A stretch of 57,923 nt of DNA. Origin: a bacterium. Lineage in GTDB: Bacteria > Patescibacteriota > Minisyncoccia > UBA6257 > GWB1-50-10. The translations under genes were made by a program, and so were the position numbers. This document shows, in pieces, positions 14,548-55,071 of the stretch. Each line of letters begins with the position of its first letter. The first letter of the stretch is position 1. The stretch spans positions 1 to 57,923 of the forward strand of contig JAKALR010000002.1 of assembly GCA_021824045.1 (NCBI GenBank), written 5' to 3'. The notes below the pieces were generated by a model, which did not search any database, was not told the DNA's origin, and saw only the letters and a program-made list of their open reading frames with translations.

Positions 14548-14620
14548 CGGCACGTAGCATAGCGGCTAATGCAACGAGCTTATACCTCGTGGATCGTAGG
14601 TTCGAGTCCTACCGTGCCGA
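14548..14620 (+). tRNA. tRNA-Ile (anticodon TAT)
   Basis: Acceptor CGGCACG/CGTGCCG+A, anticodon stem ACGAG/CTCGT, loop CTTATAC, T arm GTAGG-TTCGAGT-CCTAC. Confidence 0.8.
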
Positions 14621-14633
14621 CTTGCCGGAATCA

Positions 14634-14705
14634 GGGCAGTTAGTTCAATGGTAGAACGTCTGTTTTACACACAGAAGGTTGTAGGTCCGATTCCTACACT
14701 GCCCA
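14634..14705 (+). tRNA. tRNA-Val (anticodon TAC)
   Basis: Acceptor GGGCAGT/ACTGCCC+A, anticodon stem TCTGT/ACAGA, loop TTTACAC, T arm GTAGG-TCCGATT-CCTAC. Confidence 0.85.
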
Positions 14706-14711
14706 CAAAAA

Positions 14712-25135: not shown

Positions 25136-25528
25136 ATGGCAAAGGGCCATGCGACTGCAGTGATGATTATTGCCCCCGAAGGGATTCCGATGGTGCGGGA
25201 TCCCAAGAAACAGCCGCCGCTGTTCTGGAAAGTCCCCGGTGGCAGGGGGGATGCAACCGAAACGGCAAGGCAGTGCGCTTGCCGGGAGATTAGAGAGGAG
25301 CTTGGTATTACTCTTCAGGAAAGCGATCTTAGTATCGCTTATGAAGAGGATAAGGGGAGTCACCTGCTCACCCTCTTCGTAGTAAGACTGCCCGTCCTCC
25401 CGAAATTAAAGGAGGTCGGGAATGAAGGAGAAGAAATAAAAATTTTCTCTCCGCGCCAACTCCTCGGTATGATTGATTTTTTCCCGAATCACCGGAGGGT
25501 TTTTGAGAAGTATCTCAGAAATCTTTAG
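25136..25528 (+). CDS. Nudix hydrolase
   Basis: Nudix box GGRGDATETARQCACREIREELGI (GX5EX7REUXEEXGU). Confidence 0.85.
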   Translation: MAKGHATAVMIIAPEGIPMVRDPKKQPPLFWKVPGGRGDATETARQCACREIREELGITLQESDLSIAYEEDKGSHLLTLFVVRLPVLPKLKEVGNEGEEIKIFSPRQLLGMIDFFPNHRRVFEKYLRNL

Positions 25529-47757: not shown

Positions 47758-50589
47758 ATGGCGAAGTACGATTTCAAGAAGATAGAGAAAAAGTGGCAGA
47801 AAGAATGGGAACGGCAGAGTATCGGGAAAGCTGTCGATTTCTCCAAGAAGAAAAAGTGGTATTCGCTCATCGAGTTCCCGTACCCGTCCGGCCAGGGGCT
47901 CCACATCGGCCATATCCGGAGCCTTACGGCCATGGATATCATATCTCGGAAGCGGCGGATGGAAGGATATAACGTGCTCTATCCGATCGGATGGGACGCG
48001 TTCGGACTCCCGACGGAGAACTATGCCATCAAGACCGGCGTCGATCCGCGTGTTGCGACGAAGAAAAATACCGACACCTTCCGGAAGCAGCTGAAGGGGT
48101 TGGGATTTTCATTCGATTGGAGCCGCGAAGTGAATACGACTGATCCGAAGTATTACCGGTGGACACAGTGGCTCTTCCTTCAATTTTTCAAAAAAGGTTT
48201 GGCGTACAAAGCGGAGATCGACATCAATTGGTGCCCGAATGACAAAATCGGCCTCGCGAACGAGGAGGTGATCGGAGGCAAATGCGAACGGTGCGGCGCG
48301 GAAGTCGAAAAGCGGAAGAAGGCGCAGTGGATGCTCAAGATCACGGCATACGCCGATAAGCTCCTGAAGGGCTTGGAGAAGGTGGACTACTTGGACGAAA
48401 TCAAGGCGCAACAAATAAACTGGATCGGCAAATCGGAAGGAGCTCTCATTGACTTCGAGTTACCGGATGCAAGTTACAAGATACAAGTTTTCACAACAAG
48501 ACCCGATACGCTCTTCGGGGCGACGTACCTTGTTTTGGCGCCCGAGCATGAGCTCGTCGCGAAACTCAAAAATCACATTTCAAACTTCAAAGAAGTCGAG
48601 GCGTACGTGAAAACCGCGAGAAAAGAAACGGAAGAGGAGCGAACGGCTGAAAACAAAGAAAAGACCGGCGTGGAACTCAAGGGCGTGAAAGCGGTGAATC
48701 CGGCGACCGGCGGGGAGTTGCCGGTTTGGATCGCCGACTATGTTCTCGCCGAATACGGCACGGGCGCCATCATGGCGGTTCCCGCGCACGACGAGCGCGA
48801 TTATGATTTTGCGAAGAAATTCAATTTGCCGGTCACGTATGTCATTGCTCCATATTTTCTCGACGAGAAAGATCCGCCGCGGAAGGGAATGCCCATGGTA
48901 TTCCGGAAAGCGGTGAACTGCTACATAAAAAACCCGAAGACCGGAAAATATCTTTTTCTCGAGTGGAAAGCAACGTCGTGGAAAGGGCCGGTTTCGGGTG
49001 GCATCGAAGAGGGCGAGGATGCCGTTGGAGCAAGCTTGCGCGAAATCCGCGAGGAAACCGGCTACACGCACCTGAGATTTAAGCGATATCTCGGGAGTCC
49101 CATCCGTGCCGATTTCTATCATCCTGCCAAGAAGGAAAACCGCGCTGCGGAATTCATCGGCCTCTTGTTTGAGCTTGAGGATGAAACACGCGAAGCGGTC
49201 GAGGATGGCGAAAGAGATCGCCATGTGCCGGTATGGATTCCCGAAGAAGAAGCCTTGAAATTTCTGAATACCGGCATGACCTTCTTTGAAAGAATTTTCG
49301 AGCACAATCTCTGTTATACCGACGGCGGAAGATTGGTGAATTCAGGAAAATTCTCCGACATGGATTCCGAGAAGGCCAAAGGAGAAATCACGAAGTTCGT
49401 CGGGGGGAAGAAAACGGTGAACTATCACCTGCGCGACTGGGTCTTTTCGCGCCAAAGGTACTGGGGCGAGCCGATTCCAATCATTCACTGCGAAAAATGC
49501 GGGTATGTCCCCGTGCCGGAAAACAATCTGCCAGTTGTTCTTCCGTCCGTCAAAAACTACCAACCCCGCGACGACGGTGAATCGCCCTTGGCGTCTGTCT
49601 CCTCGTGGGTGAATGTGAAATGTCCGAAGTGTAAGAATCCCGCAAAGCGCGAGACGGACACGATGCCAAACTGGGCCGGATCGAGCTGGTATTTCTTGCG
49701 GTATGCGGATCCGAAGAATTCCAAAGAATTTGCTTCCATGAAAAAACTGAACTACTGGATGCCGATCGACTGGTACAACGGCGGCATGGAGCATGTAACA
49801 CTCCATCTGCTCTACTCGCGTTTTTGGAATATCTTTCTCCACGACCAGGGGCTCGTCCCAACAAGCGAGCCGTACCGGAAGCGGACGGCGCAGGGGATGA
49901 TTCTCGGGGAAGGAGGGGTCAAAATGTCCAAATCGAAAGGCAACGTCGTGAATCCCGATACCATCGTTCATGCCTATGGCGCGGACGTTGCGCGGATCTA
50001 TGAAATGTTCATGGGGCCTTTCGATCGGGCAATCGCCTGGGATGCAAAAGGGATCGAAGGAGTGAAGCGGTTCCTGTGGCGCGTGTGGGATATCGCCCGC
50101 GGCGAGAAGATTTCGAGAACGAAGAATGAAAAACTCGAGAAGCTTCTCGCCGCCACGGTGAAGAAGGTCGGGGAGGATATCGAGAAGATGGCTTTCCACA
50201 CGGCCGTGAGTGCCATGATGATTTTTATCAACGCCGCTGGCGACGAAGAAATCATACCCGTCCGCGTGTGGAGTGATTTCTTGAAAATTCTCGCCCCCTT
50301 CGCGCCGCACCTGGCAGATGAATTGTGGTACGAGCTGAAGAATAAGAAATCGGTGCATCTCGAATCGTGGCCCGCGTATGATCCAAAATTATTGAAGGAA
50401 GATACCGTTGAGATCGTTGTCCAGGTGAACGGTAAGCGGCGGGGAAGTGTCTTCGCGGCGGCGGATGCCGGCGAGGATGAAGTGAAAAAAGCGGCTTTGG
50501 GACTTCCGAACGTCGCAGCTGCGCTCGGTGGAGCCGCAGTGAAAAAGGTGGTATACGTTAAAGGGAGGATTATCAACCTCGTTATGTAA
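47758..50589 (+). CDS. leuS: Leucine--tRNA ligase with an inserted Nudix-like domain
   Basis: PYPSGQGLHIGH, an editing domain (TTRPDTLFGATY), and VKMSKSKGN. 943 aa. An extra segment at about 48850-49320 carries GGIEEGEDAVGASLREIREETGY. Confidence 0.93.
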   Translation: MAKYDFKKIEKKWQKEWERQSIGKAVDFSKKKKWYSLIEFPYPSGQGLHIGHIRSLTAMDIISRKRRMEGYNVLYPIGWDAFGLPTENYAIKTGVDPRVATKKNTDTFRKQLKGLGFSFDWSREVNTTDPKYYRWTQWLFLQFFKKGLAYKAEIDINWCPNDKIGLANEEVIGGKCERCGAEVEKRKKAQWMLKITAYADKLLKGLEKVDYLDEIKAQQINWIGKSEGALIDFELPDASYKIQVFTTRPDTLFGATYLVLAPEHELVAKLKNHISNFKEVEAYVKTARKETEEERTAENKEKTGVELKGVKAVNPATGGELPVWIADYVLAEYGTGAIMAVPAHDERDYDFAKKFNLPVTYVIAPYFLDEKDPPRKGMPMVFRKAVNCYIKNPKTGKYLFLEWKATSWKGPVSGGIEEGEDAVGASLREIREETGYTHLRFKRYLGSPIRADFYHPAKKENRAAEFIGLLFELEDETREAVEDGERDRHVPVWIPEEEALKFLNTGMTFFERIFEHNLCYTDGGRLVNSGKFSDMDSEKAKGEITKFVGGKKTVNYHLRDWVFSRQRYWGEPIPIIHCEKCGYVPVPENNLPVVLPSVKNYQPRDDGESPLASVSSWVNVKCPKCKNPAKRETDTMPNWAGSSWYFLRYADPKNSKEFASMKKLNYWMPIDWYNGGMEHVTLHLLYSRFWNIFLHDQGLVPTSEPYRKRTAQGMILGEGGVKMSKSKGNVVNPDTIVHAYGADVARIYEMFMGPFDRAIAWDAKGIEGVKRFLWRVWDIARGEKISRTKNEKLEKLLAATVKKVGEDIEKMAFHTAVSAMMIFINAAGDEEIIPVRVWSDFLKILAPFAPHLADELWYELKNKKSVHLESWPAYDPKLLKEDTVEIVVQVNGKRRGSVFAAADAGEDEVKKAALGLPNVAAALGGAAVKKVVYVKGRIINLVM

Positions 50590-54894: not shown

Positions 54895-54900
54895 GATTTG

Positions 54901-54987
54901 CGGAGGGTACAGGATTCGAACCTGTGAGGGGATCTCTCCCCAAGCGCATTTCGAGTGCGCCGCACTAGACCACTATGCGAACCCTCC
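54901..54987 (-). tRNA. tRNA-Ser (anticodon CGA), class II
   Basis: Acceptor GGAGGGT/ACCCTCC+G, anticodon stem GCGCA/TGCGC, loop CTCGAAA, long variable arm, T arm ACAGG-TTCGAAT-CCTGT. Confidence 0.85.
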
Positions 54988-54999
54988 GTTTAATGCCGG

Positions 55000-55071
55000 T
55001 GCCCTCGCGAAGAATCGAACTTCGATCCGCGCGTTAGGGGTGCGCTGTTCTGTCCGTTGAACTACGAGGGC
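55000..55071 (-). tRNA. tRNA-Arg (anticodon CCT) with apparent C33
   Basis: Acceptor GCCCTCG/CGAGGGC+A, D arm GTTC..GAAC, anticodon stem GCGC(A)/(C)GCGC, loop CCCCTAA, T arm CGAAG-TTCGATT-CTTCG. Confidence 0.65.

Follow-up and report, generated by a model that had tools for sequence, protein, structure and literature searches.

A Nudix domain nested in the CP1 editing domain of leucyl-tRNA synthetase in Patescibacteria

Aminoacyl-tRNA synthetases are among the best-studied enzymes, and their accessory domains (editing domains, tRNA-binding appendages, and the signalling domains of eukaryotes) have repeatedly exposed new biology. For catalytic accessory domains on class Ia synthetases, there is a precedent in the NCBIfam family NF040702 (isoleucine--tRNA ligase, N-acetyltransferase domain-containing), and the canonical form of leucyl-tRNA synthetase (LeuRS) is represented by the enzymes of Thermus thermophilus (1H3N) and Escherichia coli (4AQ7). 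Here, we describe the LeuRS gene of a patescibacterial contig (GenBank JAKALR010000002.1, assembly GCA_021824045.1, GTDB lineage GWB1-50-10), whose 57,923 nucleotides we call the window, and the Nudix domain that is inserted in the CP1 editing domain of its product. The accessory domain of NF040702 is a GNAT domain, not a Nudix domain, and the window protein scores 76 bits where membership of the family requires 1999. The window LeuRS shares the signatures and editing-site residues of the canonical enzymes, and its body is colinear with 1H3N. Unlike them, it carries about 150 extra residues in place of a 13-residue CP1 loop, and the region of the leucine-specific domain is absent.

Full-text searching of the literature returned no account of a synthetase with an internal Nudix domain and no characterized precedent for an apparently active pyrophosphohydrolase nested in a proofreading domain. 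The words tRNA and synthetase are absent from the comprehensive 2017 survey of the Nudix clan (PMC5389931), and the mention of "Nudix" in a paper on IleRS proved to be an item in its reference list and not a report of a fusion. Public databases already annotate the Pfam domains on these LeuRS proteins; the architecture is thus visible there and apparently unstudied.

The best overall explanation of our results, to which we give a probability of roughly 0.55, is that a catalytically competent Nudix pyrophosphohydrolase is tethered within an otherwise normal LeuRS. The identity of the parts is secure, while the mechanism proposed below is moderately supported.

The synthetase and its insert

The product of the single long open reading frame (ORF) listed first in Table 1 is a bacterial LeuRS by its score of 992 bits against TIGR00396 leuS_bact (cutoff 548), and its closest solved relative is the T. 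thermophilus enzyme 1h3n (E = 2.8e-223). Both the synthetic and the editing active sites retain their signatures. In an alignment of 71 LeuRS sequences, the invariant positions include H49, G51, and H52 of the HIGH signature, K722, S724, K725, and S726 of the KMSKS loop, T246, T247, R248, D250, and T251 of the TTRPDT motif, and H344 and D345 of the AHD motif. The TTRPDT residues are those that we take, from the established LeuRS literature, to act in editing. Because this motif and D345 are invariant across the alignment, the editing site looks intact; the score of the window LeuRS against the editing-domain model PF13603 is 212.8 bits. A segment of the leucine-specific domain (approximately residues 591-637 of T. 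thermophilus LeuRS) is missing from the window LeuRS and its relatives, in which the KMSKS loop comes directly.

Table 1. Coordinates of the LeuRS gene, its insert, and other features. Positions are those of the window except where a locus handle is given.
Feature	Position	Strand	Details
LeuRS gene, host of the Nudix insert	47758..50589	+	943 aa + stop; single long ORF
HIGH signature, class I synthetic site	47902..47913	+	aa 49-52; motif search
CP1 editing domain, part before the insert	48418..48852	+	aa 221-365; PF13603
Thr-rich editing-site motif TTRPDT	48493..48510	+	aa 246-251
D345 codon (AHDERD), conserved editing-site Asp	48790..48792	+	motif search
Nudix domain insert with short linkers	48853..49311	+	aa 366-518; alignments to 1h3n and insert-less relatives
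Nudix box GGIEEGEDAVGASLREIREETGY, predicted metal-binding catalytic helix	48997..49065	+	aa 414-436
CP1 editing domain, part after the insert, including GRLVNSGKF	49312..49398	+	aa 519-547; PF13603 after excision
KMSKS loop	49921..49935	+	aa 722-726; motif search
Stand-alone Nudix gene with its own complete box	25136-25528	+	130 aa; PF00293, 49.8 bits
tRNA, anticodon read as CUA	54998-55071	-	ARAGORN label 'tRNA-Pyl'; Rfam tRNA, 55.7 bits
tRNA-Ser(CGA)	54900-54987		10 nt from the CUA-anticodon tRNA
P0266, prolyl-tRNA synthetase with Nudix domain	L091:2906-4837		JGI 3300036940 Ga0377182_005565
P0254, N-terminal region + Nudix domain of the insert family	L092:4001-4699		232 aa; complete gene
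P0194, N-terminal region + Nudix domain of the insert family	L093:197-952		251 aa; complete gene

The insert is a clean domain insertion nested in a surface loop of CP1. In the alignment with 1h3n, residues 363 and 519 of the window protein correspond to residues 362 and 376, and 155 residues occupy the place of 13. Relatives that naturally lack the insert have a 10-residue linker at this site, which lies 20 residues past D345 of the AHD motif. The PF13603 match breaks off at model position 143 of 185 (aa 221-366 against model positions 2-143), and in silico removal of aa 368-516 gave a contiguous match (positions 2-183 of 185) that is the same as that of the insert-less homologue P0013. An earlier note, made from the letters of this DNA, had reported about 150 extra residues at 48850-49320 (aa 365-521) and had proposed an alignment by which to delimit them; the alignments to 1h3n and homologues agree with its limits to within a few residues. 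Its placement of the insert after the editing domain, however, did not hold, as the interruption of the PF13603 match and the in silico excision put the insert inside CP1.

We also considered whether an assembly chimera or a frameshift artefact could have fused a Nudix gene to the LeuRS gene, a suspicion that might be raised by the nearest LeuRS relatives (80-87% identical in the body), which lack the insert. The identical 943-residue protein was, however, found on three independently assembled contigs (ENA megahit assembly ERZ27237554, NCBI GCA_027347265.1, and one longer contig) with the same neighbours in all of them. The reading frame is continuous with both insert junctions in frame, the GC content across the insert (0.52-0.54) equals that of the rest of the gene without any anomaly, and more than 100 homologues have the insert at the same position. 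The identical contigs, the uniform GC content, and the widespread homologues together effectively rule out such an artefact.

The insert was assigned to the Nudix superfamily by its box, by the Pfam threshold, and by its predicted fold, and to this level only, as no characterized subfamily was demonstrable. The PF00293 model matched aa 382-500 with 43.3 bits in the whole protein, and a profile search with 48850-49320 alone gave 48.9 bits (E = 8e-13) against a Pfam gathering threshold of 21.1 bits. The box GGIEEGEDAVGASLREIREETGY agrees with GX5EX7REUXEEXGU at every position, just as it had been read in the earlier note. An AlphaFold model of the domain (aa 362-527, with a 57-sequence alignment as input) had a mean predicted local distance difference test (pLDDT) score of 94.7 and a predicted template modelling (pTM) score of 0.87. 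The corresponding values for the full-length protein were 88.1 and 0.77, and each 10-residue block of aa 360-530 in that model, linkers included, averages at least 90. The domain is accordingly modelled as compact, with its entry and exit strands close together, as a nested domain requires.

Foldseek comparison of the model with the PDB returned 529 matches at E ≤ 0.001, of which the best 50 are all Nudix proteins with a probability of 1.00 each. The top match was 2azw from Enterococcus faecalis (TM 0.72/0.80, E = 2.8e-10), followed by E. coli RppH, the Aquifex Ap4A (diadenosine tetraphosphate) hydrolase 3i7u (root-mean-square deviation 2.5 Å), and Mycobacterium smegmatis MutT1, with the M. 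tuberculosis diadenosine polyphosphatase Rv2985 and NudI further down. The model thus has the alpha/beta/alpha sandwich of the Nudix fold. Sequence, predicted fold, conservation, and independent assemblies all concur with the original proposal of a complete Nudix domain inside LeuRS, and from its sequence features the insert is very probably a real, active Nudix module.

Conservation, distribution, and history of the insert

Among the 120 best LeuRS homologues, 108 carry inserts, 153-174 residues long, where the alignment places that of the window, and the strict Nudix-box pattern was matched in 95 of these. G414, E429, E433, and G435 are conserved in all 108 insert-bearing homologues and G415 and E432 in 99% of them. 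Conservation extends to residues outside of the box, namely R383 (99%), K458 (99%), N461 (96%), R462 (94%), E485 (98%), H489 (88%), and W493 (100%), as well as L473. In one subclade, the Glu of GX5E is Gln and R428 is replaced, while E429, E432, and E433 are kept. The identity of these inserts to that of the window is 35-66%, compared to approximately 66-69% for the LeuRS body. A divergent insert with fixed catalytic residues has the appearance of purifying selection on the predicted active site.

This pattern argues against a non-catalytic role, in which the insert would be a nucleotide sensor or a structural prop for the swing of CP1 between its synthetic and editing conformations. Such a role would suit the position of the insert in the mobile CP1 and its linkers, which are modelled confidently as part of a compact unit, and it would accommodate the subclade with the altered GX5E and R428 positions and a copy in a prolyl-tRNA synthetase (ProRS; see below) that has GX5D and KE in place of RE. 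Nevertheless, 99-100% of the 108 sequences keep the REUXEE glutamates and the flanking glycines although identity within the domain is otherwise only about 40%, which is the pattern expected for catalysis, and the free-standing homologues cannot serve as CP1 props. We therefore regard a non-catalytic module as quite improbable. A purely regulatory sensor, one of the roles floated in the earlier note, seems disfavoured because the catalytic glutamates are close to 100% conserved.

Neither the spread of the insert nor its absence from the closest relatives had been foreseen when it was first noticed. A scan with one representative genome per GTDB species, using a narrower alignment, recovered 155 or more relatives. 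Among the 80 best loci, approximately 68 are inside LeuRS ORFs of 936-1735 aa (the longest in L021), 6 are cut by contig ends, and approximately 6 are free-standing. The records include Paceibacterota, Parcubacteria, Nomurabacteria, Kaiserbacteria, Taylorbacteria, Zambryskibacteria, Adlerbacteria, Buchananbacteria, Falkowbacteria, Berkelbacteria, and the Patescibacteria group, and some automatically labelled ones bear implausible organism names. An exhaustive profile search against 1.84 billion cluster representatives yielded 183 clusters (50% identity) at E ≤ 1e-30; among the top 149, there were 109 with LeuRS flanks and approximately 27 free-standing proteins of 210 aa or less. Judging by these sequence searches, the Nudix-in-LeuRS arrangement is common to hundreds of Patescibacteria species.

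Several LeuRS relatives are longer than the window protein and have extra domains in or beside CP1, after the positions of query residues 207 and 235. Some contain a second Nudix domain of the insert's family, such as P0029, whose first copy is 51% identical to the free-standing P0004, and three copies were found in P0131, P0132, and P0141. Other passengers are a PF06821 serine hydrolase whose GHSLG motif is intact, a DUF559 Vsr-like endonuclease, and, in P0164, a Ham1 inosine triphosphatase (ITPase) located between the catalytic core and the anticodon-binding domain. Extra in-frame domains were also seen in P0038, P0052, P0055, P0099, P0120, and P0122.

The family is not confined to LeuRS. 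The complete gene P0266 encodes a 643-residue class II ProRS (tRNA-synt_2b, HGTP_anticodon, and ProRS-C_1 domains) in which the anticodon-binding domain is followed by a Nudix domain of the insert's family (profile E = 5.7e-37) and then by the C-terminal domain. This copy has the FY..HK..NR and E...H...W signatures, and its box is slightly degenerate in the two respects mentioned above. Among its closest Nudix relatives are P0194 and P0254. The N-terminal part of P0194 resembles the ProRS anticodon-binding domain (35% identity over 86 aa), and P0254 has neighbours (prefoldin, IF-2B, and DHH genes) that look archaeal, possibly from a DPANN source. The free-standing members P0001-P0010 are genuine separate genes with 40-46% identity to the insert. 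The surroundings of one of them, P0004 (L001:545-10375), contain four Nudix genes along with Ham1, HAD, histidine phosphatase, LDcluster4 (LOG-like), and PF06821 genes, the last encoding a serine hydrolase 30-40% identical to those embedded in LeuRS.

The insert is missing from the LeuRSs whose bodies most resemble that of the window protein (P0013-16, P0018, P0032, and others; 69-87% identical); these have a uniform linker of 10 residues (for example, GGTPGELWEG or GQKEKLYEG). A neighbour-joining tree built from the LeuRS body nests the window protein and P0012 in a clade with the 12 insert-less sequences, and this clade and two inner nodes have 100% bootstrap support each in this distance-based analysis. 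The contig of the insert-less P0013 is fully syntenic with the window (TatD, nucleoside triphosphate (NTP)-transferase, LeuRS, a protein of about 310 aa, and HtrA). P0012 (L008:1429-4275) is 85% identical to the window protein in the body and has a Nudix domain at the same site that is only 26% identical. A close relationship between the two inserts was rejected given their 26-30% identity, and no close relative of the P0012 domain was found in a 5.8-billion-protein database.

The window insert is instead nearest to that of P0017 (66% identity). The 15-20 residues to the left of the insert are also nearer to P0017 than to P0013, those to the right are no more distant to P0017, and in all neighbouring blocks beyond these flanks P0013 is far closer to the window than P0017. 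On these sequence comparisons, the most parsimonious history would be one basal loss of the module in the window's nearest LeuRS clade, followed by its regain in the window lineage through recombination with a Paceibacteria LeuRS, with a separate event for P0012. The alternative is that the insert was lost three or four times in parallel with the same linker left behind each time; a distance tree gives no rigorous decision between the two scenarios. The Nudix module would be an accessory to LeuRS.

Two observations concern the insert-less syntenic contig L005. Early CP1 (48416-48650, aa ~220-297) falls to 55-75% DNA identity with it, against 85-95% in the upstream catalytic core, which could reflect faster evolution or a recombination tract wider than the insert. 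We also rejected a fission in which the Nudix domain moved to a neighbouring gene in the insert-less relatives, as the stand-alone Nudix gene 8 kb downstream of LeuRS on L005 does not match the insert and has only a 19-residue match (E = 0.84) to the free-standing family member P0004.

Gain and loss of this kind could also be neutral. The CP1 loops of LeuRS in these lineages may simply tolerate in-frame domains, and a house-cleaning Nudix enzyme inserted there opportunistically, such as a sanitiser of the NTP pool, may gain only co-expression or stability, without mechanistic coupling to aminoacylation. The unrelated serine hydrolase, endonuclease, and Ham1 ITPase domains hosted by the LeuRSs of relatives fit this explanation, as do the loss of the insert in the window's closest clade without visible compensation and the location of free-standing homologues among Ham1, HAD, histidine phosphatase, and other Nudix genes. 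However, most Paceibacteria-type LeuRSs retain the insert with intact catalytic residues, the same family was inserted repeatedly at three LeuRS sites and in the unrelated ProRS, and two members of an otherwise insert-less clade have Nudix domains at the identical site with inserts that are 26% identical. The retention, the repeated insertion, and this identical-site pair argue for selection on the association itself, and a purely neutral insertion is, in our view, doubtful.

Candidate substrates and roles

We propose that the insert acts as an autonomous hydrolase on a small nucleoside-5'-polyphosphate. The synthetase would be a permissive tether by which the hydrolase is placed, or co-expressed, with the machinery of aminoacylation, and the Nudix domain would take no part in the chemistry of post-transfer editing. 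A small-molecule pyrophosphohydrolase is suggested by the intact catalytic residues, the conserved basic residues, the house-cleaning neighbourhoods of the free-standing kin, the Ham1 ITPase as a fellow passenger, and the presence of hosts from both synthetase classes. A small-molecule polyphosphate is thus a somewhat favoured substrate.

Synthetases produce Ap4A from aminoacyl-adenylate and ATP, and dinucleoside polyphosphates of the Ap4A type are the only nucleotide by-product that the chemistries of LeuRS and ProRS share. For this reason, an Ap4A-type compound would be the single most probable substrate, with a non-canonical NTP as the alternative; an Ap4A-like substrate specifically is nonetheless possible rather than likely. 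Of the functions suggested in the earlier note, Ap4A clearance appears to have survived best because of a match to the lupin Ap4A hydrolase, an aromatic residue 17 positions after the box, and the same family in a class II ProRS. Proofreading of aminoacyl-adenylates by the Nudix domain is unlikely because Nudix enzymes cut pyrophosphate bonds and not acyl-phosphate anhydrides.

The lupin Ap4A hydrolase was the best match of the family profile in the PDB (E = 2e-9 over 72 residues), a weak match centred on the box. Next were 2azw, matched over nearly its full length, the decapping effector AvrM14, and the Aquifex Ap4A hydrolase (E = 1.1e-6). In ApnA hydrolases, a specificity Tyr is found in the X-loop approximately 17 residues past the Nudix box (Dunn 1999, summarised in PMC5389931). 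Position +17 is Phe in 65 and Tyr in 37 of the inserts (an aromatic in 102 of 107), and Lys is at +22 in 95 of 107; the window protein has F453 at +17 and Y454 at +18.

The diagnostic motifs of three other Nudix subfamilies (NADH, coenzyme A, and ADP-ribose) were searched for and rejected. Neither the NADH pyrophosphatase (NudC type) motif SQPWPFPxS after the box nor the coenzyme A pyrophosphatase motif LLTxR[SA]x3Rx3Gx3FPGG before it was found in any of the 108 inserts, and FPGG alone was absent too. The Pro of ADP-ribose pyrophosphatases about 15-16 residues past the box was also absent from the 107 inserts compared, which have A, S, K, or V at +15 and E, F, or D at +16; Pro occurs only at +12, in 29 of 107.

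Several points weigh against the small-molecule, and especially the Ap4A, interpretation. The insert reached no curated Nudix subfamily threshold, its matches to solved structures are all 15-24% identical and the closest of them (2azw) is uncharacterized, and the +17 aromatic is Phe more often than Tyr, the residue found in ApnA hydrolases. Our literature search for substantial Ap4A production by LeuRS in these organisms was uninformative and gave no direct evidence of it. Lastly, the repeated use of CP1, the domain that handles the 3' end of tRNA, and the joining of a part resembling the ProRS anticodon-binding domain to a Nudix domain of the insert family in P0194 could both signal a tRNA-directed role.

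The form that such a role might take is that of an RppH-like 5'-pyrophosphohydrolase or decapping module, located near the acceptor end of the bound tRNA and turning triphosphorylated or capped 5' ends of tRNA or RNA into a 5'-monophosphate. RppH models are the sole NCBIfam matches of the insert, E. coli RppH structures are among its top Foldseek matches, and some copies have weak Pfam matches to Nudt16-like (decapping) proteins. Every host binds tRNA, all three LeuRS Nudix sites are in or beside CP1, and P0194 offers the same association in a separate protein. The RppH scores are, however, far under the cutoffs (at most 23.7 bits compared to 116-259 for the PRK00714 models), and the equivalog assignment thus fails. 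The Nudix domains of the family are acidic (isoelectric points of 4.7-6.4), unlike a typical RNA-binding surface, and many members are free-standing proteins of about 160 aa without an RNA-binding partner. The tRNA genes of the window are in tandem with spacers of 10-12 nt, which points to ordinary 5' maturation in which the monophosphate ends are made endonucleolytically and not by leaderless transcription. An RNA-directed function is therefore unlikely, and we continue to prefer a tethered hydrolase of small nucleotides.

A broader and tentative possibility combines the tethered hydrolase with the repeated captures. The insert would belong to a dedicated and hitherto undescribed synthetase-associated Nudix family of ultra-small symbionts (Patescibacteria and, probably, DPANN-type archaea) that was captured repeatedly by synthetases and removes a product or substrate of the aminoacylation cycle at its source. 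The hosts would then be the three LeuRS sites, the class II ProRS, and the isolated anticodon-binding-like region, and candidate targets would include Ap4A/Np4N alarmones, damaged ATP, and a non-standard tRNA 5' end.

Window context and comparison with known enzymes

The stand-alone Nudix gene of the window had been recognized in the earlier note, and its PF00293 match bears this out (Table 1). It was rejected as a paralogue of the insert since the similarity is limited to the box region (34% over 62 aa, E = 8e-4). The tRNA labelled 'tRNA-Pyl' may be a suppressor tRNA or one with a misread anticodon; the other register of its anticodon loop would read CCU (Arg). Genome-wide recoding of UAG was rejected as an explanation for the CUA anticodon, as TAG ends 12 of 42 long ORFs. 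A second tandem pair, tRNA-Ile-UAU and tRNA-Val-UAC, is at 14548-14706. The short spacers (10-12 nt) in this pair and in the one at 54900-55071 imply co-transcription.

Because the nested domain recurs in hundreds of species, in multiple copies and sites, and in a second synthetase unrelated to LeuRS, a functional link to aminoacylation can be put to the test. An Ap4A-like substrate, if true, would make this the first synthetase bearing the means to destroy its own alarmone by-product, with consequences for the old debate over Ap4A as a signal or as a product of damage. Were it only a tethered house-cleaning enzyme, the domain would show genome-reduced bacteria of the candidate phyla radiation consolidating functions onto essential proteins and would mark the CP1 of LeuRS as a natural insertion-tolerant scaffold. 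A dedicated synthetase-associated family would amount to a third, nucleotide-directed quality-control site on a synthetase.

Among characterized Nudix enzymes, the insert compares best with the ApnA hydrolase/RppH group (lupin 1F3Y, Aquifex 3I7U, E. coli RppH/NudH, M. tuberculosis Rv2985, and M. smegmatis MutT1). It shares with them the full Nudix box and the fold (TM 0.6-0.8), and it likewise has an aromatic residue approximately 17 residues past the box and then conserved basic residues. Unlike these enzymes, to which it is 15-24% identical, the insert family has mostly Phe rather than Tyr at this position, is nested in another enzyme, and has an activity that is predicted. The E. faecalis MutT/Nudix protein 2AZW, from structural genomics, is the best structural and second-best profile match (18% identity) and, being itself uncharacterized, offers no clue to the substrate.

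The covalent joining of a Nudix domain to a second enzyme of adenylate or nucleotide metabolism has parallels in NadM-Nudix of Synechocystis (NADM_SYNY3, mentioned in PMC5389931) and in MutT1, which combines Nudix and histidine phosphatase domains. Those proteins are end-to-end fusions, whereas the Nudix domain of the window is nested within a domain of its host, and that host is an aminoacyl-tRNA synthetase.

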